Below are positions 1 to 12,076 of a stretch of 12,076 nt of DNA, piece after piece. Each line of letters opens with the position of its first letter. The first letter of the stretch is position 1. The notes under the pieces are model-generated. The model did not search any database, was not told where the DNA came from, and saw only the letters and a program-made list of their open reading frames with translations. The DNA is taken from positions 1-12,076 of the IMG/VR virus record IMGVR_UViG_3300010244_000045; one strand, 5' to 3'. Origin of the DNA: a virus. A program made the position numbers and the translations under genes.

Positions 1-199
1 GCAGAGCTGTGAATGACCGACCTTCCCTAACACAGATGTCAACACCTGTCAAGAAATAGGGTGAAGATACGAAACCGAGATATATAGAGGTGAGAAGTCA
101 ACAAGTGAGAAGTCAACAAGTGAGAAGAGTGAAATAGAGAGGGTAGACTAGAGAGGGTAGTAGTGGTGGTGTAGCCTGAGTTAACCTAATGAGAGGCTA
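1..199 (+). repeat. Terminal module copy A (199 bp, GCAGAGCTGTGAATGACC...GAGAGGCTA) with 2 iterons
   Basis: The same sequence restarts at 207 after a 7-nt spacer (GGGTAGT). The only difference from copy B is the 15-mer copy number: 274 - 199 = 75 = 5 x 15. Confidence 0.95.
90..127 (+). repeat. 15-bp tandem iteron array GTGAGAAGTCAACAA, 2 full copies plus an 8-nt partial
   Basis: Full copies at 90-104 and 105-119. Partial GTGAGAAG at 120-127. Confidence 0.97.
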
Positions 200-229
200 G
201 GGTAGTGCAGAGCTGTGAATGACCGACCT

Positions 230-258
230 TCCCTAACACAGATGTCAACACCTGTCAA
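230..258 (-). promoter_or_regulatory. Outward-facing promoter-like element in module B (copies also at 24-52 minus, 11819-11847 plus and 12025-12053 plus)
   Basis: Read on the strand pointing to the nearest genome end: TTGACA, a 17-nt spacer ending in TGT, then TAGGGA. The -35 is perfect and a TGn motif is present, but the -10 is weak. A second TTGACA lies 10 nt downstream. Confidence 0.3.
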
Positions 259-295
259 GAAATAGGGTGAAGATACGAAACCGAGATATATAGAG

Positions 296-408
296 GTGAG
301 AAGTCAACAAGTGAGAAGTCAACAAGTGAGAAGTCAACAAGTGAGAAGTCAACAAGTGAGAAGTCAACAAGTGAGAAGTCAACAAGTGAGAAGTCAACAA
401 GTGAGAAG
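296..408 (+). repeat. 15-bp tandem iteron array GTGAGAAGTCAACAA, 7 full copies plus an 8-nt partial
   Basis: Seven perfect head-to-tail copies at 296-400. Partial GTGAGAAG at 401-408. Confidence 0.97.
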
Positions 409-577
409 AGTGAAATAGAGAGGGTAGACTAGAGAGGGTAGTAGTGGTGGTGTAGCCTGAGTTAACCTAATGAGAGGCTATATGTGAAGAGATAAGGGTT
501 AACGAATAGTAACGCCTTAGAATGATATAGAATGGCTTAGACGTTGAATGTGAAGGTCTGAGAGGTGGTATGAAATG

Positions 578-599
578 ATAGGGTTGTAATAGGGTTGTA
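578..599 (+). repeat. 11-bp tandem duplication ATAGGGTTGTA x2 inside the ITR (mirror at 11478-11499)
   Basis: 578-588 is identical to 589-599. Confidence 0.9.
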
Positions 600-680
600 G
601 TCAAGGTCTCTAGGTTCAAGCAAAGAGAGTAAGAAAGAAATAGAGTAAGCTACTAAGAAGTAACCTACTCTAGTTGTTGT

Positions 681-748
681 CTATTCGTTTATGTAAACAC
701 CTTGTCTTAAGAGTGTTTGAATGGTTTCTTGTTCAGTTTCTGAGGCTG
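681..748 (-). pseudogene. Orphan copy of the last 22 codons plus stop of the 722-aa tail gene, carried in the left ITR
   Basis: Exact reverse complement of 11329-11396 (...ASETEQETIQTLLRQGVYINE stop). It has no upstream reading frame, start codon or RBS on the minus strand. Confidence 0.85.
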
Positions 749-751
749 AAC

Positions 752-780
752 TTGTAATTGTATTCTATTTGTGTTAGAAT
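752..780 (+). promoter_or_regulatory. Early promoter P1, immediately inside the left ITR boundary
   Basis: TTGTAA (752-757), a 17-nt spacer with TGt at 772-774, then TAGAAT (775-780). The context ATTTGTGTTAGAAT matches the recurring promoter box. Confidence 0.6.
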
Positions 781-840
781 GATAGTAGGTGTTATAAATT
801 GATTAGGGATTAGTGTACTTTCGTTTCTAATGTCAACAGA

Positions 841-856
841 TATTTGTGTTATATTA
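841..856 (+). promoter_or_regulatory. Early promoter P2 (extended -10 box TATTTGTGTTATATTA)
   Basis: TGt at 847-849 and TATATT at 850-855, about 30 nt upstream of the AAAGGAGG RBS of the first ORF. TGTCAACA at 831-838 overlaps the spacer/-35 region. Confidence 0.55.
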
Positions 857-887
857 AGTATAGAAGGCAATAAAAGGAGGTGAAATT

Positions 888-989
888 ATGTATACAGTAG
901 ATGATTTATTAGAGTTTGTTGAGCATTGCAAACAAGAGGGTATTGAAGTAACTATGATGAACTTTGAAAAGTATAAAGAAGATAAATAG
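888..989 (+). CDS. Small hypothetical protein, 33 aa (MYTVDDLLEFVEHCKQEGIEVTMMNFEKYKEDK), not in the supplied ORF track
   Basis: ATG at 888 preceded by AAAAGGAGGTG (872-882) at ideal spacing. Open to TAG at 987-989. It is the first frame downstream of the early promoters. Confidence 0.5.
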   Translation: MYTVDDLLEFVEHCKQEGIEVTMMNFEKYKEDK

Positions 990-1004
990 AAGGGGGTGTT
1001 AACA

Positions 1005-1268
1005 ATGGCAGAAGTATTAGACAGAAAAGAACAGTCTAAACGTTATGGTGCATTTTGTAAGAACTTTCGTATCGAGTATTTACGAATGGGCTTAGTGGAG
1101 TTCTCAGAACAGACTGATTTGAATTATAAGAGTGTATCGGCTTTTGAGAGTGGTAGGGCTAATAGTTTAGTTTACTTGTACCATTACTACAATATGGCTA
1201 GTGAAAATCAAAAGAAAGTTTTTGCAAATAACATATTTGAAAGAGTAGGAGGTTGTTTTAATGGCTAA
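1005..1268 (+). CDS. XRE-family helix-turn-helix transcriptional regulator (87 aa from ATG 1005)
   Basis: LRMGLVEFSEQTDLNYKSVSAFESGRANS fits the Cro/CI-type HTH pattern. AGGGGG (991-996) lies 8 nt before ATG 1005, so that start is preferred over the track's GTG at 996. Its stop overlaps the next start (ATGGCTAA). Confidence 0.7.
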   Translation: MAEVLDRKEQSKRYGAFCKNFRIEYLRMGLVEFSEQTDLNYKSVSAFESGRANSLVYLYHYYNMASENQKKVFANNIFERVGGCFNG

Positions 1269-1851
1269 ACGAGGAAGAGGTAGACCTTCAGACCCTCCAG
1301 AGATTAGGGCTTTAAAAGAGAAGTATAGAAACGAAATAGCGAAAGCAAATGCAAGGCTACGAAACATCAGAAAAAAAGAGGCAGAGTATTCTCCGGCTTA
1401 TCAGGCTTGGGAAAATAATCTAGGTAGAAACTTTTCAACTGGTGGTCTGAAGAGTGAAAATGAAATTAAAAACGAGATGAGCCGAGTTAGAAAGTTTTTA
1501 AGTAATGAAACAAGCCTCCCAAGTGTAGCTGAAAAGTTTACCGAAAAGCTAGGCGAACGAATAGGCAGGCTAACTCAAGGGTATCGAACAGATGTAGATG
1601 TAGCAGTAGAACCTTTGACTCAGGATCAAATGAAACCTGTATTTGAAGCAGTAGGGAAATACCGACAGGAAAGACAAAAAAGGCGAAACGCTACTGACTT
1701 AACGTCAACAAGAATCTTTCAGGAAGTTCAAGAATTTTCTGAGGGATTAGGAATAGACCTAGCAGAAATGGATTCCGTGGACGTTGAAAGAGCAGTACAA
1801 CAAATGTTTAATATAGAACCCGACGAAGAAATTAATTTCTTTGACTTTTAG
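1261..1851 (+). CDS. Candidate terminal (priming) protein, 196 aa
   Basis: Lies directly upstream of, and translationally coupled into, the protein-primed polymerase module. It has a basic N-terminus (MAKRGRGRP...IAKANARLRNIRKK) and an acidic C-terminus ending in FFDF, loosely resembling phi29 p3 as I remember it. GGAGG lies 8 nt upstream of the ATG. Confidence 0.55.
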   Translation: MAKRGRGRPSDPPEIRALKEKYRNEIAKANARLRNIRKKEAEYSPAYQAWENNLGRNFSTGGLKSENEIKNEMSRVRKFLSNETSLPSVAEKFTEKLGERIGRLTQGYRTDVDVAVEPLTQDQMKPVFEAVGKYRQERQKRRNATDLTSTRIFQEVQEFSEGLGIDLAEMDSVDVERAVQQMFNIEPDEEINFFDF

Positions 1852-1872
1852 TAGGGGGTGAAGAATTGAATA

Positions 1873-3996
1873 ATGAATACTAGATTAGATTTAACAAATA
1901 TAAAAAAGCCCAAAACATACAGCAAGGACAATGTAGACTATCTTAACATCGAATGTGGGTTCGATATCGAAACAAGTTCTACATTAGATGAAAATGGGAA
2001 ACCATTTTCGAACATGTACGCTTGGACTTTTGGAATACAAGATAAAAATCATATAGTTTACGGCAGAACTTGGGAAGAGTTTGAAGCCTTAATGTATGAA
2101 CTGAAAGATTACTTCAATCTTGGGAAGGGTAGAAGATTAATCGTTTATGTTCATAATTTAACCTATGATTTTCAATTTATGAGAAAAAATTTTAAATGGT
2201 CTCGAATTTTTGCTAGAGATGTACGAAAACCAATTATAGCAACTACGGAGTTAGGAATTGAGTTTAAAGATAGCTACTTATTGAGCGGTTACTCATTAAA
2301 TGATGTAGCTGAACGGTTAACAAAACCTGAACACCAGATTAAAAAGTTAAAAGGTGACATGAACCATGATTTAGTTAGACATTATGACACTAAACTAACA
2401 AACAATGAGCTAAAATATATGGAAAATGATGTGCTTATCATTCTCTATTATATTAACGAACAGATAGAGCTTTATGATAATCAAATTACTAAAATACCAT
2501 TAAGCAATACTGGACGAGTAAGACGGTTCATCAAATATAATTGTTATTTTTTCACCCCGAAAGGAACGAAGGACTCTAATGGACAAATAGCAAGGTTTGA
2601 CCAAGATATTCATGGCTTAACGTTGAGTTCAAACGTATATAGATTATCTAAACAAGCCTTTATGGGTGGCTTTACACATGCAAATAGTAAATACGTAAAC
2701 AAAGTTGTTAAAGATGTAGTTAGTTATGATTTATCTAGTTCGTACCCTTCAACGTTACCAACTGAGCTTTTCCCAATGAGTACAGGTGAAAGAATCCACC
2801 CCGAAAACTTGGAAGAACTAAAAGCCCAAAAGAGTAATTATTGTTTATTATTTCAAATACGCTTTAAAAATATCTCGAGGAAATCACATATCCCAGACGA
2901 CTATATAAGTTCTAGCAAGTGCCAGACCCTAGAAGCTCCTATCTTAAGCAACGGACGAGTAAACGGAGCTGATGAGCTAGTAACTACTATTACAGATGTA
3001 GACCTAGACATCATCGAACGTGTTTACACGTGGGATAGTGTAGAAATAGCTGGAGTATATAGGTTTAAAAAAGGCTATATACCAAAACGTATCATTGATT
3101 CTATTATAACACTATTTAGGAACAAAACAAAGCTGAAAGGTATTAAAGATAAGATTTTAGACTACCAACTAAGTAAAGAAATGCTTAATGCAGTATACGG
3201 AATGATGGTAACTGACCCTGTAAAATCTGATATTGTTTATAATAAAAAATTTGACGAGTGGGGAGAGGTAGACCCCGACATGAAGAAAGAACTTAAAGAA
3301 TATAACGAAGAAAAATATAGAACCCTTTTTTATCCTTGGGGTATTTGGGTTACAGCTTACGCTAGGCGTAATTTGTGGTACTTAATCGAGTCACTGGGAC
3401 AAGATTATATTTACTCTGATACCGACTCAGTGAAGTTTAAAAACCATGAAAAACACAAGCATCTGTTTGAACGGTATAATAAAATGGTAGAGAAAAAACT
3501 AGAAGTTAGAGCTGGTAAAAATCACGGGTACACTCTCGAAGACTTCAAGCCTCAGACACCTGAGGGTGAAACGAAAACACTTGGATTTTGGGAGCTTGAC
3601 GGTGAATATTCCAAGTTTAAAACCTTAGGAGCTAAGATGTATCTAGTCGAACACAAAAACAACAAAGAACTTGAAGTAACCGTATCAGGACTAAGCAAGG
3701 AACATGGGAAAAACTACCTTAAAAAGCATTTTGAAAACACTGAAAACATCTTTAATAATTTTACAAATAAACTGACTATATCAGCTGAGGAATCAGGCAA
3801 AAAGTCCGTTTACTACTTGGACAAGTCCCGAAATGCTAAAATAACGGACTACCAAGGACAAACAAGAGCAGTCCACTCACGAACAGGTGTTTATATGGAA
3901 AATGCACACTTTACTTTAGATGAGACTGAACGAGATTTTGACTTAGTAAAAGACCTATTCAACGGCTACATTTACGAAGGTGAAAGTAGAATATAA
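1873..3996 (+). CDS. Protein-primed family-B DNA polymerase, 707 aa
   Basis: Motifs found: Exo I GFDIETSS; Exo II YVHNLTYDFQF; Exo III YMENDVLI; motif A YDLSSSYPS; motif B KEMLNAVYGMM; motif C YSDTDSV; KxY motif LGAKMY. The order and spacing match phi29-type polymerases. Confidence 0.97.
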   Translation: MNTRLDLTNIKKPKTYSKDNVDYLNIECGFDIETSSTLDENGKPFSNMYAWTFGIQDKNHIVYGRTWEEFEALMYELKDYFNLGKGRRLIVYVHNLTYDFQFMRKNFKWSRIFARDVRKPIIATTELGIEFKDSYLLSGYSLNDVAERLTKPEHQIKKLKGDMNHDLVRHYDTKLTNNELKYMENDVLIILYYINEQIELYDNQITKIPLSNTGRVRRFIKYNCYFFTPKGTKDSNGQIARFDQDIHGLTLSSNVYRLSKQAFMGGFTHANSKYVNKVVKDVVSYDLSSSYPSTLPTELFPMSTGERIHPENLEELKAQKSNYCLLFQIRFKNISRKSHIPDDYISSSKCQTLEAPILSNGRVNGADELVTTITDVDLDIIERVYTWDSVEIAGVYRFKKGYIPKRIIDSIITLFRNKTKLKGIKDKILDYQLSKEMLNAVYGMMVTDPVKSDIVYNKKFDEWGEVDPDMKKELKEYNEEKYRTLFYPWGIWVTAYARRNLWYLIESLGQDYIYSDTDSVKFKNHEKHKHLFERYNKMVEKKLEVRAGKNHGYTLEDFKPQTPEGETKTLGFWELDGEYSKFKTLGAKMYLVEHKNNKELEVTVSGLSKEHGKNYLKKHFENTENIFNNFTNKLTISAEESGKKSVYYLDKSRNAKITDYQGQTRAVHSRTGVYMENAHFTLDETERDFDLVKDLFNGYIYEGESRI

Positions 3997-4050
3997 GCTA
4001 GTTAGAATAGAATAATTGCAAGAATTATGATGAAAATAGAACGCCCCTTC

Positions 4051-4066
4051 ATTTATGTTATATTAG
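4051..4066 (+). promoter_or_regulatory. Promoter box upstream of the packaging module (ATTTATGTTATATTAG)
   Basis: TGt at 4056-4058 and TATATT at 4059-4064. The 15-nt context is near-identical to the boxes at 841-856 and 6724-6739. It lies inside the track's N-terminal extension of the ATPase ORF. Confidence 0.5.
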
Positions 4067-4098
4067 AGAGAGAAGGGGCAAAAAGGAGGCTTCACGAG

Positions 4099-5223
4099 TT
4101 GGTAAAAGTTGAACAAGATATACCAAAAAAGAACAAGAAAAATAAATATTACTCCTTAAATTCAATTCTAGGTAAAAACGCCGTCTATAATGTTGTATTT
4201 GGGGAACGGTCAAACGGTAAAACGTACGCCGTGCTTAAATACGCTATTGACCAGTATTTTAATGGCAATGGTGGAGAGTTTGCTATCATAAGACGGTGGC
4301 AAGAAGATATACGAGGGAAACGGGCTAGTGCTATCTTTTCCGCCCTCATTGAAAACAATGAAATTTACGAGCTATCAGGTGGTGAATATGAAGGGGTAAC
4401 CTACTTTAACGGTAGGTTCTTCTTTTGTAACTATGAGGGCAACAAGCCTATTTACAACGAAGGTGATGTATTCGCTTACATATTTTCATTATCTGACCAA
4501 GAACACAATAAGTCTTTTTCATATCCAAAAGTGAAAACGATTTTATTTGATGAGTTTCTAACCAGAGGTATGACGTTAACAGATGAATTTGTACTTTTCA
4601 TGAATACTATTTCAACTATCATCAGACAGCGAACAGATGTAAAAATTTTCATGCTTGGGAATACCGTAAACAAATATTCCCCGTATTTTAAGGAAATGGG
4701 CTTAAAACACGTACCAAAACAGGAACAGGGTACCATAGACGTTTACGATTATGGGGAGAGCAAGCTAAGAGTAGCGGTTGAATATGCTTCTAGTTCAGAA
4801 GCCAAGAAAAAGAATAACTTTTACTTTGCCTTTGATAATCCAAAACTAAGCATGATTACAGACGGAGCTTGGGAGTTAGACATTTACCCTCATTTACCCG
4901 TCAAGTACAAACCCCAAGACATTTTACTTACATATTTTATCAAGTTTGACGGCAACATTTATCAAGCTGAAATCATAGATACAGACGGAGAACCGTTTAC
5001 CTACATACATGACAAGTCAACTCCTATCAAGAACGAGAATGAAGACCTTGTTTTCAGTCTTGAATTTAACCATAAAATGAACTATCAAAGAAGCATATAT
5101 AAACCTGTAAACCAAGTAGGAAAAGCGATACTCTACTTTTTTCAAATGGATAAGATTTTCTATCAAGATAACGAAGTAGGAGACGCTATTAATAACTACC
5201 TGAATATATCAAAACAACTATAA
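4099..5223 (+). CDS. DNA encapsidation (packaging) ATPase, phi29 gp16-like. Proposed TTG start at 4099 (374 aa); the track start at 4027 is the alternative.
   Basis: Walker A region NVVFGERSNGKTYA followed by FAIIRRW, and Walker B KTILFDEF, parallel phi29 gp16 (FVIGARGIGKSYA...FIYVRRY...FDEF). AAAGGAGG (4082-4089) lies 9 nt before an in-frame TTG at 4099. There is no SD before ATG 4027, and a promoter box sits at 4056-4064. Confidence 0.88.
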   Translation: MVKVEQDIPKKNKKNKYYSLNSILGKNAVYNVVFGERSNGKTYAVLKYAIDQYFNGNGGEFAIIRRWQEDIRGKRASAIFSALIENNEIYELSGGEYEGVTYFNGRFFFCNYEGNKPIYNEGDVFAYIFSLSDQEHNKSFSYPKVKTILFDEFLTRGMTLTDEFVLFMNTISTIIRQRTDVKIFMLGNTVNKYSPYFKEMGLKHVPKQEQGTIDVYDYGESKLRVAVEYASSSEAKKKNNFYFAFDNPKLSMITDGAWELDIYPHLPVKYKPQDILLTYFIKFDGNIYQAEIIDTDGEPFTYIHDKSTPIKNENEDLVFSLEFNHKMNYQRSIYKPVNQVGKAILYFFQMDKIFYQDNEVGDAINNYLNISKQL

Positions 5224-5236
5224 AGGAGCTGAACAA

Positions 5237-6706
5237 ATGGCTTATAATGAAAAATTCGATTGGGGTATTTATAACGGAATCGGAATTACATATGACTATA
5301 AAGATAAGTCCTTAAACGTACGTAGACAAATTCACTATATGCTGAACAGAAGTTTACTGATGTTTAAATATCACGGGTTACCTGATTCCCTCCCTGCTAA
5401 AGAATTAGAACGACTATTACAAACGAATGGATACGCTGGGGTTACTGAGGTAGAAGGTGACTTATACGCCTTTTACGGTGGGTTAGGAGGTGAACCGAAC
5501 GTTTACGGAAAACCTACTACAATGACCATAGCCAACCCTGCTTTAAACTACAATGAAATGCTAGAAATTGGAGAAGAGGTTGTTTTAGCTAAGAATGACG
5601 ATTTAATGATGGGCTTAGTTCCTATTTACTCAAAATATTCAACGCTTATGAATGAAAATGAGATAACTATGATTCTCAGCCTCATTAATAAACGAGCTAA
5701 CAACATGATTAGTGTTACAGATGATAACACAGCAGAATCAGCTAGGCAGTACCTGAAGAACCTTGAAGCTGGAGACTTAGGCTACATATTCGAGAACAAA
5801 CTCTTTGATTCCCTGAAAACCAATCCGACTGGAGAAGGTTCAGGAACCAATTTAAACGAGTTAGTAGAGTTTGAACAGTACGTTAAAGCTAGTATGTATA
5901 ACGAGATAGGCTTAAATGCTAACTTCAACATGAAGCGTGAACGCCTTGTTTCAGACGAATTAGAAGCCAACTCAGAAACCTTGTACCCTCTAGTAGATAA
6001 TATGCTAGACAATAGACGTCAAGCCGTAGAACAGATTAATGAAATGTTTGGTACAGAGATTCAAGTAGAATTTAACTCAAGCTGGGATATGAGACTAGGA
6101 CAAGAAGAATATACAGAAGCTTCAGACGAGACCCGAGAAGAAGAGTTAAACCCTGAAACTGATTTAGGGTTAGAAGATATAACATCAGAAGAAAATGAAA
6201 GTCCTCAAGGTGAAGACGTAGAAAATGACTTAAACCTTAATGATGAAGGAATAACTGAAGATACTGAAGCATTGGAGTATTTACACACCTTAGAGCCTGA
6301 AGAATCTGAAGAGGACACTGAGACGGAATCAGAGGACGAACAAGAGGTTACTGACACTGAAAACGATGAAGAGACTGCTTATCCCTCAGAAGACAGTACA
6401 GAGCCTTTAAATGAGTCTGATGAAGACGTTGAAGAACCGACTGAAGAACCTCAAGGAGAGAATACAAATATTGATATAGATATCAACGTAGACTCTCAAT
6501 CAGAAGCCACAGAAGAGCCTGAGAATGATTTAGAAGAAGAGAATGAAGAAACACCTGAAGAGGATACAGAAGAGCTCACAGAGTATTCTGAGGACGATTC
6601 AGAGGAAGAGGTTAACGTAGAGGTCAACGTAAACACTGAAGAGAATACTGAAGAACCTGAAGAGGAAGACGAGGACGAAGAGGGAGACGAACAACTTTCA
6701 GACTAA
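5237..6706 (+). CDS. Portal/connector protein (phi29 gp10-like, aa 1-288) fused to a 201-aa polyacidic C-terminal tail
   Basis: Several blocks are co-linear with phi29 gp10 as I remember it: LLMFKYHGLPDSLP, NVYGKPT...ANP, NENEITMILSLINKRANNMISV, MYNEIGLNANFNMKRERLVSDE and RRQAVEQINEMFGTEIQVEF. AAGGAG RBS at 5222-5228. Confidence 0.9.
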   Translation: MAYNEKFDWGIYNGIGITYDYKDKSLNVRRQIHYMLNRSLLMFKYHGLPDSLPAKELERLLQTNGYAGVTEVEGDLYAFYGGLGGEPNVYGKPTTMTIANPALNYNEMLEIGEEVVLAKNDDLMMGLVPIYSKYSTLMNENEITMILSLINKRANNMISVTDDNTAESARQYLKNLEAGDLGYIFENKLFDSLKTNPTGEGSGTNLNELVEFEQYVKASMYNEIGLNANFNMKRERLVSDELEANSETLYPLVDNMLDNRRQAVEQINEMFGTEIQVEFNSSWDMRLGQEEYTEASDETREEELNPETDLGLEDITSEENESPQGEDVENDLNLNDEGITEDTEALEYLHTLEPEESEEDTETESEDEQEVTDTENDEETAYPSEDSTEPLNESDEDVEEPTEEPQGENTNIDIDINVDSQSEATEEPENDLEEENEETPEEDTEELTEYSEDDSEEEVNVEVNVNTEENTEEPEEEDEDEEGDEQLSD

Positions 6707-6723
6707 AAATGAAAGCACTTCCA

Positions 6724-6739
6724 ATTTGTGTTATATTAG
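6724..6739 (+). promoter_or_regulatory. Promoter box upstream of the head module (ATTTGTGTTATATTAG)
   Basis: TGt at 6729-6731 and TATATT at 6732-6737. The flanks match the 4051-4066 box, including the downstream AGAGAGAG. Confidence 0.5.
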
Positions 6740-6759
6740 AGAGAGGAGGGTAAAGAAGA

Positions 6760-7374
6760 ATGCACGTACATAATTTATATAAAGATGGAAAAGGCATTTT
6801 TCATTACATAGACCAACTAGAAGAACTACCCTTCAGGGAAATGTTAGATACAGAAACCGTAGACCTGCTTTTTATCAGCCTTCACGGTTCGAGAGAAGTA
6901 TCAACAACCGTCCGAAATATAGTAGGTGATGAAGAAGTAACAGAGGATAATTTAAAGGCAGTAGCTAGTATGCTTCACGGACTTTATTTTAAAAAGTGGG
7001 TGAACTTATACAACATTTACGCCCGAGAGTTAGAACTTGAGACTTATAACCTAACAACCACTGAAACCATTGATGATGACGGGAAAACAAGTTCAGATAC
7101 CAATGACTCAACAACAACAACCAGACAAACAGGCGTAGCTGGTTATAATAGTGAAGATTTTGCTAATGATGAAGAAGAATCACTAAAAGATGAGGCAACA
7201 GGTGAACGAACAGGAACAAGTCAAAATGAACGAACCAGAGAAACACAGGTTAAAGGTAATACTGATAACCTAATAGATGATAGAAATAAAGCAATAAATG
7301 CACTTAAATATAACCTACTTCAAGATACAATCTTTAAAGATGTGAATCAGTTTGTAGGTACACTAATTTATTAA
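6760..7374 (+). CDS. Virion-module protein of unknown role, 204 aa (candidate scaffolding protein or lower-collar/adaptor)
   Basis: AGGAGGG RBS, and a position between the portal and capsid genes. The termini look helical and the centre is rich in T/S/D/E. I recognised no diagnostic motif. Confidence 0.6.
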   Translation: MHVHNLYKDGKGIFHYIDQLEELPFREMLDTETVDLLFISLHGSREVSTTVRNIVGDEEVTEDNLKAVASMLHGLYFKKWVNLYNIYARELELETYNLTTTETIDDDGKTSSDTNDSTTTTRQTGVAGYNSEDFANDEEESLKDEATGERTGTSQNERTRETQVKGNTDNLIDDRNKAINALKYNLLQDTIFKDVNQFVGTLIY

Positions 7375-7388
7375 AGGAGAATGAATCA

Positions 7389-8552
7389 ATGAGAGTTGAA
7401 CAAATACATGAAATTATGAACCAATCGACATCAGAAGTATTAGGTAGAGAAGGTATTGTAAAAGAAGACCTTTCTAATATCGTAGACGTGGGTAACGAGA
7501 TTATTGGTTCAGATAATATTGATAACTATGTTAAAAAGCTAGTCAACCATATTGGAAAAGTGGTTTTTGATAACCGAACATATTCAGGAAACGTTCCAAG
7601 CGTATTAATGGATAGCTGGGAATTTGGATCAATCCTAGAGAAAATCAGCGCAGATATTCCACAAGCTGAAGAAAACGAAAGCTGGAATTTAAACGATGGT
7701 GAAGTATACGGACAAGATACTTTCTACCAACCTAAAGTAAACGCTAAATTCTTCAACTCTAAAGTAACTTTTGAAGTACCAATTTCATTTACTGAGCTTC
7801 AGGTTAAAGAATCGTTCTCTAACGCTGAACAGCTAAACGGTTTCTTATCTATGATTTTCAACGCAGTAGAGAAATCTCTAACTATCAAAACTGATAACTT
7901 AGTTATGAAAATGTTGAATAACATGACAGCTGAAACCCTAACAGATGACTTAGTAGACGGAGAAGGTACTTTACAGTTGAGCCAATCAGGAACAAAGGCT
8001 ATTAACTTGTTGAGTCTATACAATGAGCAAGCTGAAGGAACAGTTACGAAAGATGTTGCACACCGTAACCCTGATTTTATCCGTTTTGCTTCATACGTGA
8101 TTAACCTTTATAAAGACCGTATGACTAAGATTAGTACGTTGTTTAACGTTGGTAAGAAAGAACGCTTCACACCTGAACAAGATATTAACGTAGTTCTTCT
8201 TTCAGACTTTGCAAGCGCTTCAACAGCCTTCTTACAGTCTGATACTTACAATAGTGAGTTAGTAGCGTTACCGAACTATGAAACAGTGCCTTACTGGCAA
8301 GGTTCAGGGGAAACGTATGACTTTACAGAGGTTTCTAAAATCTCAGTCAAAACATCAAACGGTGACCATGTAACCACTGATGGAATTTTAGGAGTTATGT
8401 TTGATAAACAAGCCGTAGGTGTAGCTAACTTAGATAGACGAGTTACTTCCCACTACAATGCTAAGGCTGAGTTCTACAACAACTTCTACAAAGCAGACGC
8501 AGGTTATTTCAACGACTTAAACGAAAACTTCATTGTTTTCTTTGCTGCTTAA
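7389..8552 (+). CDS. Major capsid protein, 387 aa
   Basis: Its size, its position after the portal/scaffold-like genes, its AAGGAG RBS and the strong terminator downstream all fit. Blocks such as KKLVNHIGKVVF and GVMFDKQAVGVANL resemble phi29 gp8 (LVDRIGLVV, LVDKDWFMVYDNL). Confidence 0.78.
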   Translation: MRVEQIHEIMNQSTSEVLGREGIVKEDLSNIVDVGNEIIGSDNIDNYVKKLVNHIGKVVFDNRTYSGNVPSVLMDSWEFGSILEKISADIPQAEENESWNLNDGEVYGQDTFYQPKVNAKFFNSKVTFEVPISFTELQVKESFSNAEQLNGFLSMIFNAVEKSLTIKTDNLVMKMLNNMTAETLTDDLVDGEGTLQLSQSGTKAINLLSLYNEQAEGTVTKDVAHRNPDFIRFASYVINLYKDRMTKISTLFNVGKKERFTPEQDINVVLLSDFASASTAFLQSDTYNSELVALPNYETVPYWQGSGETYDFTEVSKISVKTSNGDHVTTDGILGVMFDKQAVGVANLDRRVTSHYNAKAEFYNNFYKADAGYFNDLNENFIVFFAA

Positions 8553-8589
8553 TTAACTACATAAATCTAATCTAGTATTTAGGGTAGGG

Positions 8590-8770
8590 TTCTGATACTG
8601 AGGGATAAGGGTAGGTATCAACATTTAGTCAAAGTTACTCGTGCCGACATTCAAAAGTAACTTGTCCTTTTACATATCTATGTAAAAACAGATTCATAGA
8701 ATGGCTTAAAATGTCATTCTAAACTCACTAAGAGGGTAGGGGTAGGAGGTTACCCTTACCTTCTTTTTTT
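8590..8770 (+). ncRNA. Structured non-coding region (4 hairpins plus a terminator hairpin); candidate packaging RNA or structured 3' UTR
   Basis: Stems: 8593-8598/8615-8620; 8632-8639/8656-8663; 8668-8675/8680-8687; 8697-8705/8713-8721; 8731-8744/8751-8764. The region has no ORF or RBS. Confidence 0.3.
8731..8770 (+). terminator. Rho-independent terminator after the capsid gene
   Basis: AGAGGGTAGGGGTA (8731-8744) pairs with TACCCTTACCTTCT (8751-8764), including two G-U pairs, around the loop GGAGGT. A T-run follows to 8770. Confidence 0.8.
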
Positions 8771-8789
8771 ATATTAAGGAGCGTACCAG

Positions 8790-9221
8790 ATGGAAATAAA
8801 GTTGTATAATACAACCAATTCAAATAACACGATTAATAAAGAATTAACTGACGAATTAACGTATAATATTCAATTTACAGACACAGCCAATGTTATCAGC
8901 CCCGTTGTAAGATTAAAAGATGAACAGCTAGTTAAACGGAACTATGCTTACATACCTAACTTTAAACGGTATTATTTTATTCGAGATATAAGCAGTAAAC
9001 CGAATCGAATAACGACTTTAGAGTTAGAAGTAGACGTATTGGAGAGCTTCAAAGAGGATATTTTAGAATCATACGGAACTGTAGGACGACACTTAGGAGC
9101 TAACAAGTATTATGATGGTGGAAGTTACCCGAGTGAAGAAAGAAAGACTCATACGATTTATAAGAGTGATGTTACACCAGAATTTGAAGAAACAGTCTTG
9201 ATGACATTGATTGGAGGTTAA
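8790..9221 (+). CDS. Tail knob N-terminal-domain protein, 143 aa (phi29 gp9 N-terminus-like)
   Basis: NYAYIPNFKRYYFIRDISSKPNRITTLELEVDVLESFKEDI parallels phi29 gp9 [48 protein letters not shown] lies 8 nt upstream. Confidence 0.7.
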   Translation: MEIKLYNTTNSNNTINKELTDELTYNIQFTDTANVISPVVRLKDEQLVKRNYAYIPNFKRYYFIRDISSKPNRITTLELEVDVLESFKEDILESYGTVGRHLGANKYYDGGSYPSEERKTHTIYKSDVTPEFEETVLMTLIGG

Positions 9222-9227
9222 ATATAA

Positions 9228-11396
9228 ATGGCAAATTTATCTGAACTAAATCCTTTTCCAGAAAGAGACCCTTACGCAACCTCATTCCCTGTAAACAAAG
9301 TGTCTTCGCCAGCCATTGAAATTAGAAGCTCTACAAACGACGCAGGGCGAACTACATTAGACGATTCGGTTACGATTTGGGTAAGTGATAGGTTAAAAGA
9401 TATTGATAACGTTACAATATACATGTTCAAGGCGGGTACAAGTGGTGGCTTTTTCTCACAACCTAGCGAAAGTATATTTCCCGACAATGGTATACCTTCA
9501 GAACAGTATAAGGGTGCAAAGTACTTCAGATTTAGAATAGGCGATTACTTCACTGAAGACGATATTCTAGAAGAATTGAGGGTAAGGGTAGACGTTGTCC
9601 CTCAAGGGCAGGCAAAAACGGGAATACCTATAGAATTTAATCTTGATGATGAGCTTACAACCTCGAATAATCATTGGGAATACGTAGAACTTGATACGCC
9701 TATAACAATCAAAGCTGAATCAGACCAGGCTATTAATGCAATGAGAATCACGCGTGCTACAGGAATACATTCAAGTTGGCAGGATAACATTGCTGACACT
9801 GATTATTTTGATGTTAAAATACCAGACGAAAGTGTTCATAATCAGACTGAATTTACTTTTACTATAGGAGACTATAGAGCTAGTTTTGGTAGAGATTTAT
9901 GGTTCACAATAAACGCTACAAGCGTACCTGCTGAAGAAATACCACTCATCGAAGCAACTTACAGTGAATCATTGGTTAACTTAACTAGCGATAAGCTAGA
10001 TGATATGGTTATTGAAGGGCAAGACAACCTTGTAACATTTAGCTCTACTGATGACCATCATTATATAAGTTCACTAGAGATTGATTTAGAATATACAAAC
10101 ATGGAAGTAAACACTGTTGAGGTAACACTAAGTGAACGTCAAAAACATATAACTGTAGACCTGAGCAGATACCTTGAAGATGATTTACTTGGTATTCACA
10201 TGAAGGGTAGAGCTGATAAACTTAGAACATGGCTTACATACACAACTGAAGAAGAAGCAGAGGACAACCCAAGTTTCACTGCTACGGTAATCAATGCAAC
10301 AGTACAAAATCAGTCTGATATGATTAATGATGATGATATAATCGTGATTACAGGTAACTCAGGTAGAGTCTTTAATGACCCTATTACATTACGAATAGAT
10401 TACCCTGATGAGCTTATCAGAGGGGGGACAACAGCCCCCACACATGAAACATTCACAGCGTACCCTGATGACCCCGAAACAGCAGGTTATTTCAGTGAAG
10501 ACAAGGGAACTGTACGTATACCTGTTGCTGACTTTTGGAAGGAAGAGTACTACGAATTCCCACCTGGGAGGGTAACAATCACACAAGCTGTAGCGTCCCA
10601 AAAGAAGCTTACCGACGGTTTTGTAACCAACTATGCTAACATATTCAAAATGAGTAGAGAGAGCTTAGACGAGTTCACAGAAGCCTTGTACAGCTTTGAT
10701 TCGAATAGCTACCTAGATAGCGTTTATAATCGGGTACATTCAATCTACAGCATGCCTTTCAAGCTACCTGATGAGATGATTTCAGAGGAGCCTAAAGACA
10801 TTATTACATATAATTCAGGTGGTACTAATGTTGAGAGTCCTGAAGCTCGTTACATACTTGATAATAAGTACATTGTCCCTTTAGGCACGATTAGCGTAGA
10901 GGGCGAGTATGGTAACGTATATGACTTTAAAGACACTCAGGCATACGTACACGCACCTTATGTAGAGCAACCTATACTAGTAGACCCTAGTTACGTAATC
11001 AATGAGCAAGTCACTCTAAACGTCGCAATAGACCTTTATAACGGTAATGCTACACTGAACATACATTCGAGCAAGATACAAGGAGAGCTAGTGCAAAGGA
11101 ACAACATTCCTATTAAGCACGATATACCAATGGTAAGCAACTCTTACAACGTGATTGAGGGCGTAGTTGGTGGCTTTGTATACAACCAAGTAACCACACC
11201 TTTCATTGAGATTGTCCGTAATATACCTTATGAATCAGGTTCTATGTTCGGTAAAGAATCTAATGACTACTCACAACTCAAACACTTCACAGGCTATATT
11301 GAAGTGATGACAAGTCACGTCAACTCAACAGCCTCAGAAACTGAACAAGAAACCATTCAAACACTCTTAAGACAAGGTGTTTACATAAACGAATAG
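9228..11396 (+). CDS. Tail knob/receptor-binding protein, 722 aa: four tandem beta-rich modules plus a gp9-like C-terminal region
   Basis: The C-terminus FTGYIEVMTSHVNSTASETEQETIQTLLRQGVYI resembles the gp9 C-terminus [34 protein letters not shown]. GGAGG lies 10 nt upstream. It is the largest late ORF, and its last 68 nt lie in the ITR. Confidence 0.72.
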   Translation: MANLSELNPFPERDPYATSFPVNKVSSPAIEIRSSTNDAGRTTLDDSVTIWVSDRLKDIDNVTIYMFKAGTSGGFFSQPSESIFPDNGIPSEQYKGAKYFRFRIGDYFTEDDILEELRVRVDVVPQGQAKTGIPIEFNLDDELTTSNNHWEYVELDTPITIKAESDQAINAMRITRATGIHSSWQDNIADTDYFDVKIPDESVHNQTEFTFTIGDYRASFGRDLWFTINATSVPAEEIPLIEATYSESLVNLTSDKLDDMVIEGQDNLVTFSSTDDHHYISSLEIDLEYTNMEVNTVEVTLSERQKHITVDLSRYLEDDLLGIHMKGRADKLRTWLTYTTEEEAEDNPSFTATVINATVQNQSDMINDDDIIVITGNSGRVFNDPITLRIDYPDELIRGGTTAPTHETFTAYPDDPETAGYFSEDKGTVRIPVADFWKEEYYEFPPGRVTITQAVASQKKLTDGFVTNYANIFKMSRESLDEFTEALYSFDSNSYLDSVYNRVHSIYSMPFKLPDEMISEEPKDIITYNSGGTNVESPEARYILDNKYIVPLGTISVEGEYGNVYDFKDTQAYVHAPYVEQPILVDPSYVINEQVTLNVAIDLYNGNATLNIHSSKIQGELVQRNNIPIKHDIPMVSNSYNVIEGVVGGFVYNQVTTPFIEIVRNIPYESGSMFGKESNDYSQLKHFTGYIEVMTSHVNSTASETEQETIQTLLRQGVYINE

Positions 11397-11404
11397 ACAA
11401 CAAC

Positions 11405-11446
11405 TAGAGTAGGTTACTTCTTAGTAGCTTACTCTATTTCTTTCTT
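11405..11446 (+). terminator. Terminator-like hairpin after the last gene, encoded within the right ITR
   Basis: TAGAGTAGGTTAC/GTAGCTTACTCTA forms an imperfect 13-position stem with 2 mismatches and a 6-nt loop, followed by TTTCTTTCTT. The mirror copy is at 641-672. Confidence 0.55.
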
Positions 11447-11596
11447 ACTCTCTTTGCTTGAACCTAGAGACCTTGACTACAACCCTATTACAACCCTATC
11501 ATTTCATACCACCTCTCAGACCTTCACATTCAACGTCTAAGCCATTCTATATCATTCTAAGGCGTTACTATTCGTTAACCCTTATCTCTTCACATA

Positions 11597-11870
11597 TAGC
11601 CTCTCATTAGGTTAACTCAGGCTACACCACCACTACTACCCTCTCTAGTCTACCCTCTCTATTTCACTCTTCTCACTTGTTGACTTCTCACTTGTTGACT
11701 TCTCACTTGTTGACTTCTCACTTGTTGACTTCTCACTTGTTGACTTCTCACTTGTTGACTTCTCACTTGTTGACTTCTCACCTCTATATATCTCGGTTTC
11801 GTATCTTCACCCTATTTCTTGACAGGTGTTGACATCTGTGTTAGGGAAGGTCGGTCATTCACAGCTCTGC
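11597..11870 (-). repeat. Terminal module copy B, right arm (mirror of 207-480)
   Basis: Reverse complement of 207-480, ending in ...CACAGCTCTGC at 11870. Confidence 0.95.
11669..11781 (-). repeat. Mirror of the 7-copy iteron array (TTGTTGACTTCTCAC on the + strand)
   Basis: CTTCTCAC at 11669-11676, followed by seven TTGTTGACTTCTCAC units to 11781. Confidence 0.97.
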
Positions 11871-11877
11871 ACTACCC

Positions 11878-12076
11878 TAGCCTCTCATTAGGTTAACTCA
11901 GGCTACACCACCACTACTACCCTCTCTAGTCTACCCTCTCTATTTCACTCTTCTCACTTGTTGACTTCTCACTTGTTGACTTCTCACCTCTATATATCTC
12001 GGTTTCGTATCTTCACCCTATTTCTTGACAGGTGTTGACATCTGTGTTAGGGAAGGTCGGTCATTCACAGCTCTGC
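11878..12076 (-). repeat. Terminal module copy A, right arm (mirror of 1-199)
   Basis: Reverse complement of 1-199. Confidence 0.95.
11950..11987 (-). repeat. Mirror of the 2-copy iteron array
   Basis: Reverse complement of 90-127. Confidence 0.97.

Follow-up and report, generated by a model that had tools for sequence, protein, structure and literature searches.

A 12-kb φ29-related podophage genome bounded by long inverted terminal repeats and lacking recognisable lysis genes

The IMG/VR record IMGVR_UViG_3300010244_000045, analysed here over its whole length of 12,076 nucleotides (nt; hereafter, the window), is very probably the complete linear double-stranded DNA genome of an uncultured, φ29-related podophage of the Astrithrvirus-like type, or such a genome lacking a few terminal nucleotides or repeat units, and represents a reduced sub-lineage of that group. 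The window is bounded by inverted terminal repeats (ITRs) of 748 nt that lie flush with both of its edges and are 100% complementary to one another, a match that chance cannot yield. A preliminary description of this DNA had proposed a whole protein-primed, φ29-like replicon with ITRs at both edges and about ten genes, and the perfect repeats, the hallmark protein profiles and the recovery of the same phage in independent assemblies bear this out. Completeness is favoured on account of the perfect ITR, the recurrence of its junctions in other assemblies, the terminal ITRs of related phages and the shared register of a terminal motif.

Ten credible genes, all on the plus strand, were identified: nine open reading frames (ORFs) of at least 85 amino acids (aa), ranging from 90 to 722 aa, and one ORF of 33 aa with a strong Shine-Dalgarno sequence. 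Coding density amounts to 96% of the interval 888–11396. The genes terminate in TAA or TAG only, and all are intact under translation table 11, with no in-frame TGA. Minus-strand ORFs of at least 40 aa all fall within the ITR or leader, or lie antisense inside plus-strand genes. No tRNA genes were found in the window, and an Rfam search of both strands returned no match at E ≤ 1, including to prohead RNA (pRNA). Pfam assignments were judged against the curated cut-offs, with PHROGs as a second profile set. By this measure the family-B DNA polymerase (PolB), packaging ATPase, portal and capsid calls made previously are confirmed, as PF03175, PF05894, PF05352 and PF25622 all score above their cut-offs and PHROGs agree. 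The exonuclease motifs Exo I–III, motifs A, B and C and the KxY motif are all present in PolB, and the ATPase has a Walker A motif (GERSNGKT) at residue 59 and a Walker B motif (ILFDE) at residue 172. Five of the large proteins and the 33-aa ORF have no match in Pfam, PHROGs or NCBIfam.

A tblastn search of 50,697 phage records with PolB identified as the nearest annotated genomes those of cultured phages of 10.4–11.9 kb: Acinetobacter phage Phanie, the phages Astrid, astrithr and assan of Salmonella, Pectobacterium phage DU_PP_III, Enterobacter phage Entb_47, Vibrio phage K58 g2 and a Shigella phage. Identities to these relatives are 44–47% over the full length of PolB (45–47% for astrithr and Phanie), 57–60% for the ATPase and 54–61% for the major capsid protein (MCP), and the window is syntenic with OX458330, NC_048862 and MK080312. 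The order shared with Astrithrvirus and Phanie is small protein, terminal protein (TP)-like protein, PolB, ATPase, portal, gene 7, MCP, knob N-part and knob C-part; the likeness extends to a linear ITR-bounded genome, a split knob with immunoglobulin (Ig)-like inserts and a terminal motif shared with Phanie. The Astrithrvirus-like group has been described as φ29-related (cluster 23); its genomes measure 11–14 kb and specify a TP-like protein, a short lower collar and a tail knob that is split over two genes, with Ig-like inserts in the larger knob protein; all of its cultured members infect Gram-negative bacteria (PMC11476376). The kind of phage is already known, having been cultured, classified and reviewed, and the window is a reduced form of it. 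The preliminary description had presented a newly small tailed phage, and this novelty was overstated because the comparison was made with φ29 alone: the cultured phages, with the same layout, already have a genus of the International Committee on Taxonomy of Viruses, Astrithrvirus, for those of the astrithr type. Megablast of the whole window against the same phage records gave no match, so there is no genus-level nucleotide similarity to Astrithrvirus astrithr, and protein identities of 45–61% would fit a separate genus or higher taxon.

Compared with the 13–15 genes of the cultured Astrithrvirus-like phages, the ten of the window do not include their 62–70-aa transmembrane (TM) protein between ATPase and portal, their endolysin or their two to four right-end minus-strand genes. 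The N-terminal two-thirds of the large knob protein is unrelated to the knob of these relatives, and the probable host is a Firmicute, whereas theirs are Proteobacteria. Nearest to the window are two other uncultured genomes, L014 (IMGVR_UViG_3300010165_000021) and L015 (IMGVR_UViG_3300020227_000038), with MCP identities of 76% and 73%, respectively. Both share the reduced gene set, the absence of lysis genes and long ITRs that abut the knob gene; L014 differs in its knob protein of 1059 aa (8818–11997), which has G5 domains, and L015 in the inversion of its left 7.3-kb module (526–7273). The replication-packaging-portal module is likewise inverted relative to the capsid-knob module in L020, L021 and L026, in each case, as in L015, with the ITRs retained. 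Module inversion between ITRs is apparently tolerated, and the one-strand layout is therefore not a trait of the clade. The earlier statement that all genes are co-linear thus stands for the window and fails as a rule for its relatives, given these inversions and the minus-strand genes of the cultured phages.

More distantly, φ29 itself (Salasmaviridae) shares with the window the families of the protein-primed PolB, gp16 ATPase, gp10 portal and gp8-type MCP, a linear ITR-bounded genome and, as supported for the N-part, apparently a knob on the gp9 plan. It differs in its size (19.3 kb, 27 genes), its 6-bp ITR and its divergent early and late operons, and it possesses pRNA, a single-gene knob, gp12 appendages, a gp13 tail lysin and a gp14/gp15 holin/endolysin pair, to which the window has no counterparts. 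To our knowledge, pRNA is a feature of Salasmaviridae only and is not known for the astrithr-like group. The Amedibacillus phages AD70P2 and AD70P3 (Guelinviridae, 12.2–12.3 kb), which have a Gram-positive host, are similar in being small, φ29-like and nearly one-stranded, but with 17 genes and identities of 34% (PolB) and 30% (MCP) they belong to another family.

Exact-protein look-ups recovered this phage again, with nucleotide identity of at least 99.6%, in at least five samples (two ENA and two Logan assemblies and two JGI metagenomes). The junction of the right ITR with unique sequence, at 11329, recurs in the independent assemblies L004, L005, L008 and L009, and the left junction in L008, L009 and L012. 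Assemblies L004 and L005 extend 293–333 nt from the tail gene into the right arm. Both arms are present in L009, where they must have been assembled separately because they are only 96.7% identical to each other. Eleven relatives have terminal ITRs, of 84 nt in Astrid, 123 nt in L021, 136 nt in L025, 171 nt in Phanie, 198 nt in L019, 515 nt in L017, 576 nt in L014 and 639 nt in L015, with short ones in three further genomes; the ITR of the window overlaps a gene and is far longer than the 84–171 nt of the cultured relatives. The terminal motif begins at nt 8 of the window, likewise at nt 8 of L014, and at nt 25 of Phanie. Since two unrelated assemblies end in the same motif register, position 1 appears to be the real end of the genome, or to lie a few bases from it.

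Several observations weigh against completeness and would suit ends that are incomplete or chimeric, with one end folded onto the other so that a right-end module is hidden, or a 206-nt terminal duplication that is an artefact of graph unrolling. The outermost ~408 nt of each arm were seen in this assembly only, and the duplication and the exact copy numbers of a 15-nt repeat array rest on it, all other assemblies of the phage breaking at the array; neither the terminal 33-mer nor the terminal 27-mer had a match in IMG/VR or JGI metagenome contigs. The arms are 100% identical in the window as against 96.7% in L009, and a repeat-collapsing assembler would give identical arms by construction. 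Moreover, the first base of the contig is also the first of a repeated unit, and the cultured relatives do possess a module at their right ends, which in astrithr comprises the endolysin and small early genes. We nonetheless consider this explanation improbable. Four independent assemblies repeat the order of knob gene, terminator and inner ITR, and on the left this inner-ITR sequence again leads into the early genes. The divergent L014 and L015 are complete and ITR-bounded without any right-end module, their ITRs beginning at the stop codon of the knob gene. The terminal motif is in a common register in the window and L014, and the junction X-GGGTAGT-T between the tandem terminal units would have required genuine reads. 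An element integrated or domesticated in a Tetragenococcus-type chromosome, instead of a free replicon, is suggested by scaffold Ga0116604_10169 (L008/L013, 27.5 kb), which sets window positions 676–11647 between NanE/PTS/GH4 and RNase R/ECF/QueG genes, and by scaffold Ga0116604_10136 (L112), which does likewise for an L014-type phage. Every junction of phage with host DNA in these scaffolds is, however, a single N, so that the sequence is not continuous; four such joins occur in the first scaffold (at 7498, 18471, 21392 and 23699) and one in the second (at 4025, 78 nt inside the phage ITR). The breakpoints lie asymmetrically inside the inner ITR boundary (73–78 nt on the left versus 319 nt on the right) and resemble k-mer overhang into a repeat. 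Both scaffolds come from one assembly; in four other assemblies the contigs are free and terminate in the ITR. The window encodes no integrase, and a PolB scan of 185,579 GTDB genomes found nothing. With junctions made of single Ns within the ITR, scaffolding of repeat-bounded contigs accounts for the arrangement; the integrated-prophage reading was rejected on this ground and we give it hardly any credence. No contig was accordingly seen to pass the ends of the window into host DNA. The scaffolds of IMG metagenome 3300009048, which join two mini-phages to a lactic acid bacterial chromosome, could be taken for prophages by automated surveys.

Table 1. Coordinates of genes, repeats and signals in the 12,076-nt window (RBS, ribosome-binding site; TRF, Tandem Repeats Finder).
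Feature	Coordinates	Strand	Details
Left ITR	1..748	none	100% complementary to 11329-12076
Terminal segment T, candidate replication origin	1..89	+	motif TGTGAAT..TTCCC at 8-27
15-nt tandem array GTGAGAAGTCAACAA x2.5, outer copy	90..127	+	TRF, 100% matches
15-nt tandem array GTGAGAAGTCAACAA x7.5, inner copy	296..408	+	TRF
Unique leader with early-promoter-like sites	749..887	+	TTGTAA-17-TAGAAT at 752-780
33-aa acidic ORF	888..989	+	strong RBS aaaggagg; gene call in independent JGI/Logan annotations
p90, candidate Cro/XRE-type helix-turn-helix DNA-binding protein	996..1268	+	87 aa from ATG at 1005 more likely
p196, candidate terminal protein (protein primer)	1261..1851	+	directly upstream of PolB
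Protein-primed family-B DNA polymerase (PolB)	1873..3996	+	PF03175 2.7e-15 (56.7 bits, cut-off 25.8); phrog_1907 9e-71
gp16-type DNA-packaging ATPase	4027..5223	+	PF05894 1.3e-17 (64.7 bits, cut-off 25); phrog_2150 7.5e-31
gp10-type portal (upper collar)	5237..6706	+	PF05352 2.2e-16 (60.6 bits, cut-off 25.6); phrog_2038 3.6e-39
p204, homologue of Astrid ORF7/Phanie gp7, candidate short lower collar	6760..7374	+	hhalign versus gene-7 family: probability 96.7%, E 3.6e-10
φ29-type (HK97-fold) major capsid protein	7389..8552	+	PF25622 3.8e-53 (181.4 bits, cut-off 27)
Strong intrinsic terminator after capsid gene	8730..8765	+	16-bp stem then T-run; in 237-nt intergenic region
p143, tail-knob N-part (cf. 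N-terminal tube-like domain of φ29 gp9)	8790..9221	+	family-profile PDB matches
p722, presumed knob C-part	9228..11396	+	~4 tandem Ig/fibronectin-III (FN3)-like β-domains (~30-460), C-terminal module 466-722
Right ITR	11329..12076	none	inner ~110 nt = 3' end of last gene + terminator
Intrinsic terminator of single long operon	11405..11436	+	14-bp stem then T-run; inside ITR

To survey gene content, the ORFs of the window and of 19 related genomes were compared all against all. Astrid, Phanie and L025–L028 encode members of the CHAP/amidase endolysin family, a 62–93-aa membrane protein lies between ATPase and portal in seven genomes, and Astrid, Phanie and L017 are among the genomes with right-end minus-strand genes; the window, L014 and L015 have none of the three. 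L014 encodes the same nine large genes as the window and L015 the same plus one, and the position of their ITRs at the end of the knob gene leaves no room for further genes. No plus-strand ORF of at least 25 aa outside the known genes of the window has a hydrophobic stretch of TM grade such as would be expected of a holin. The possibility of a lysin or depolymerase hidden in p722 was rejected, since AlphaFold2 (AF2) and Foldseek gave Ig/FN3-type folds only and no enzyme fold, and Pfam, PHROGs and NCBIfam gave no match. Two further explanations of the missing lysin, a non-standard genetic code and a host among the wall-less Mollicutes, were likewise set aside, the genes being intact under table 11 without in-frame TGA and the ecology being that of walled lactic acid bacteria. 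The absence of a recognisable lysis or wall-degrading function, common to the window, L014 and L015, and accompanied in the window by the lack of a TM ORF or enzyme fold, is thus a reproducible property of the sub-lineage and not the result of truncation. A 37-aa ORF in an alternative frame of p722 (9754–9867, plus strand) is moderately hydrophobic (Kyte-Doolittle 1.64) and is the only plus-strand candidate for an embedded peptide of the φX174 E type; the part of p722 in which it lies is not conserved in relatives.

Release from the cell and penetration of its wall would have to be provided by an unrecognised protein or by a co-infecting helper phage. Taken further, the latter would make the window a helper-dependent, satellite-type mini-phage that needs the tail of a helper as well as its holin, endolysin and tail lysin. 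The absence of an endolysin, a holin-like TM protein and a tail lysin from all three genomes of the sub-lineage is hard to square with an autonomous cycle on a thick-walled Firmicute, and Phanie, which has the same split, Ig-bearing knob, reportedly lacks infectivity when not attached to the tail of a helper (PMC11476376); in the account of Pourcel et al. 2024 given there, it is the contractile tail of a helper myophage that Phanie requires for infectivity. Phanie itself retains an endolysin, however, and the relatives from Salmonella formed plaques when isolated. The helper is hypothetical, a lysis protein may hide among p33, p204 or the embedded ORF, and the host assignment is circumstantial. 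Helper dependence is therefore a possible but doubtful explanation. More doubtful still, and in our judgement unlikely, is the fuller proposal of a lysin-less, ten-gene φ29-type lineage on Gram-positive, halophilic lactic acid bacteria that uses a helper tail for entry and a helper lysis cassette for exit. If true, it would extend the ‘tail piracy’ of the Phanie type to Firmicutes and provide the smallest gene set known for a DNA-filled tailed-phage head, and the split knob with Ig-like arms would be an adaptation for docking to a helper, not to the Gram-negative envelope. In either case a sub-lineage with ten genes and no recognisable lysis function bears on the minimal requirements of tailed phages and on how far helper dependence of the Phanie type has spread.

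The ITRs account for 12.4% of the genome and have a composite structure. The outer 206 nt (1–206) are a direct repeat of 207–480, the two copies differing only in the number of 15-nt units. Each tandem terminal unit consists of an origin segment, the 15-nt array and a 72-nt GGGTAG-rich segment, and the two are joined by GGGTAGT. Segment T has its second direct copy at 207–295 and mirror copies in the right arm. The duplicated unit may be a real duplicated origin or may reflect population heterogeneity. Over the window the motif TGTRAAT(N0-16)TTCCC occurs four times compared with 0.135 expected, the array core GTCAACA 24 times compared with 1.7 expected, and GGGTAG 18 times compared with 3.5 expected, the last being concentrated in the ITR and, downstream of the capsid gene, in the 237-nt gap. 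Eleven of the GTCAACA copies lie in each arm and one, at 832–838, lies in the leader that contains the early-promoter-like sites, in the same orientation as the array copies. The inner array could serve as a platform on which a DNA-binding protein of the phage occupies several sites.

Since the right arm starts within the last gene, the repeat takes in the final 22 codons of p722 as well as the terminator behind them. These codons include the invariant Gly of the family and its conserved E..I..LL..GV.I motif, and the terminator has a mirror copy at 641–672 on the minus strand. Because the inner ~110 nt thus consist of functional right-end sequence (gene end and terminator), their copy in the left arm is secondary. 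The ITR would appear to have grown inwards by the copying of right-end sequence onto the left end, and the two ends may have been homogenised by strand switching or recombination, as expected of protein-primed replicons. Apart from the terminal motif and the leader, the ITR of the window could not be aligned with those of L014 and L015. An ITR at 12% of the genome, with a gene end, a terminator, a duplicated origin segment and 15-nt arrays, offers a natural example of end growth and homogenisation in such replicons.

The unique leader is conserved with the leaders of L014, L021 and Phanie, and an extended −10 element (TGtTATATT) could be read by eye near 845–855. A consensus scan for promoters nevertheless found 34 sites overall versus 33 expected, which is chance level. 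One rightward transcription unit may extend from ~750–880 to the terminator at 11405–11436, with attenuation after the capsid gene at 8730–8765. The intergenic region in which the latter terminator lies (8553–8789) contains four GGGTAG motifs, at 8582, 8609, 8734 and 8740, and is unusually long at 237 nt: the corresponding gap measures 97 nt in L014 and in L015 60 nt.

Immediately downstream of the leader, the 33-aa ORF has no family match, whereas the p90 family is kept in L014, L015, L019, Phanie (gp1) and Astrid (ORF1). The preliminary description had termed this protein a regulator; the helix-turn-helix signals are weak (HTH_19 at 0.0036 in one family member, SinR at E 0.5), and the label is reduced here to that of a candidate DNA-binding protein. 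The next protein, p196, is homologous to Phanie gp2 (27% identity, 5e-9) and to a family found in 10 genomes, and a p3-like terminal protein has been reported in the Astrithrvirus-like group (PMC11476376). Its position and family homology make p196 a candidate terminal protein. Counter to this, hhalign comparison with φ29 gp3 was negative (probability 0.3%) and a profile search of the PDB gave no terminal-protein match, so that the assignment offered earlier has gained no direct confirmation. If it is correct, p196 would prime replication at the TGTGAAT..TTCCC origin, 8 nt from each end. The GTCAACA arrays and the leader copy could be binding sites for p90, which would then organise the origins and regulate early transcription in the manner of φ29 p6 and p4, and the protein-binding arrays, on this analogy, would couple origin organisation to control of the early promoter.

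Among the virion proteins, the portal has a C-terminal tail of 199 aa (residues 291–489) in which Asp and Glu make up 47% of residues and Lys and Arg 1%. In L015 and L016 a separate ORF of 126–133 aa is found between portal and p204 in place of this tail. Packed into a very small head, twelve such polyacidic tails could conceivably mimic DNA, buffer pressure or serve as a built-in scaffold, for which the window shows no separate gene. The gp16-type ATPase would package TP-linked DNA through this portal, and the virion may comprise a small φ29-type head, the portal, a short collar (possibly p204) and a two-protein knob.

At least 600 homologues make up the p204 family, and contigs no longer than 12.8 kb carry almost all of them. 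The AF2 model of p204 has a confident helical core and an unmodelled segment at residues 92–171. Profile comparisons do not favour a collar role directly, as those with φ29 gp11 (hhalign) and the PDB were negative or insignificant, and Foldseek found no PDB match for the model; in BFVD an annotated lower collar was matched at E = 2 only, the other matches being to uncharacterised podovirus proteins. As the only candidate in the window for a gp11-type lower collar, p204 may by elimination be a short lower collar, or tail tube.

Evidence for the knob is stronger for its N-part. A 13-sequence profile of p143, which is homologous to Astrid ORF9 and Phanie gp9, was compared with 177,635 PDB sequences; the best match was the knob of Streptococcus phage C1 (PDB code: 4eo2, E 0.0037, residues 70–152) and the second best that of Staphylococcus phage Andhra (8egs_Y, E 0.25), both in the N-terminal parts of these knobs. 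By hhalign the same block is placed on residues 91–131 of φ29 gp9 (E 0.0026). At the level of sequence comparison, these matches support assignment of p143 as the knob N-part.

The large partner, p722, was modelled by AF2 from 61 homologues (predicted local distance difference test score 80.7) as approximately four β-sandwich domains followed by a C-terminal module. Foldseek comparison with the PDB returned fibronectin-III/Ig repeats and a bacterial adhesin repeat, the whole-chain search being swamped by Ig/FN3 domains. An exhaustive HMMER search gathered 626 representative homologues of 163–1487 aa, which have in common a stretch of ~255 residues and nothing else, found in every case at the extreme C-terminus; a word-indexed search, with single sequence and with profile, returned the query alone. 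With the C-terminal ends of Astrid ORF10 and Phanie gp10 the C-terminal module shares 27–30% identity (E 1e-15 to 3e-17), and p722 is presumed to be the knob C-part because of this homology and the published modelling of those proteins. Two results count against a direct link with φ29: the module aligned with gp9 residues 533–584 in three independent comparisons at E 0.016–0.2, which is not significant, and it had no PDB sequence match, even with a deeper profile (149 homologues, jackhmmer/hmmsearch). The gp9-like knob in two parts that had been proposed therefore stands as to the split, known in relatives (PMC11476376), and as to the N-part, supported by the C1 and Andhra matches, but not as to a significant link between C-part and gp9. 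The tail would consist of p204 and a hetero-oligomeric p143/p722 knob, with Ig/FN3 arms that may bind the cell surface or the tail of another phage. Across the family of large knob proteins, a constant C-terminal anchor of ~255 aa is combined with freely exchanged N-terminal parts, including G5 domains in 4 of the 61 members sampled and InlB B-repeats in 2 of the 61. The large knob protein is a modular cassette for host range (or for helper docking).

The host is likely to be a member of the Firmicutes, as judged from sample ecology, scaffold partners, knob domains and ribosome-binding sites, and is probably a halophilic lactic acid bacterium, Tetragenococcus or a neighbour. In run SRR7719421, a smokeless-tobacco metagenome that contains this phage, Enterococcaceae make up 56% and Carnobacteriaceae 29%, Proteobacteria account for 0.004% of 16S reads, and recG of T. 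halophilus is present at 420x (PMC6943401). The DNA joined to the phage in the scaffolds is Tetragenococcus-like, its GH4 gene having 95% protein and ~90% nucleotide identity to T. halophilus; on the other flank lie genes for RNase R, a nucleoside deoxyribosyltransferase and ECF. The G5 domains of the sibling L014 knob and the InlB B-repeats of two knob homologues are domains of Gram-positive surface proteins, and the ribosome-binding sites are of the strong AGGAGG type. On the other side, this evidence is circumstantial and the scaffold joins are Ns; the tetranucleotide correlation with Tetragenococcus loci, normalised for G+C (GC) content, was ~0 and gave no host signal; a GC match is unreliable in this group, given astrithr with 39.7% GC on Salmonella; and the PolB scan of GTDB genomes revealed no close relative. 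The split knob and short collar have been suggested to be adaptations to Gram-negative hosts (PMC11476376), an idea that would need revision if the Firmicutes host is true. Tetragenococcus is an organism of industrial fermentation (soy sauce, fish sauce), and its phages are of practical interest.

Comparison of the terminal repeats bears additionally on a reference genome. The RefSeq record of astrithr (L002, 11,569 bp) is short of ~66 nt at each end relative to Astrid (L003, 11,713 bp), and retains only an 18-nt terminal match compared with the 84-nt ITR of Astrid. Because of these missing ends, the astrithr reference genome of Astrithrvirus has probably been end-trimmed.

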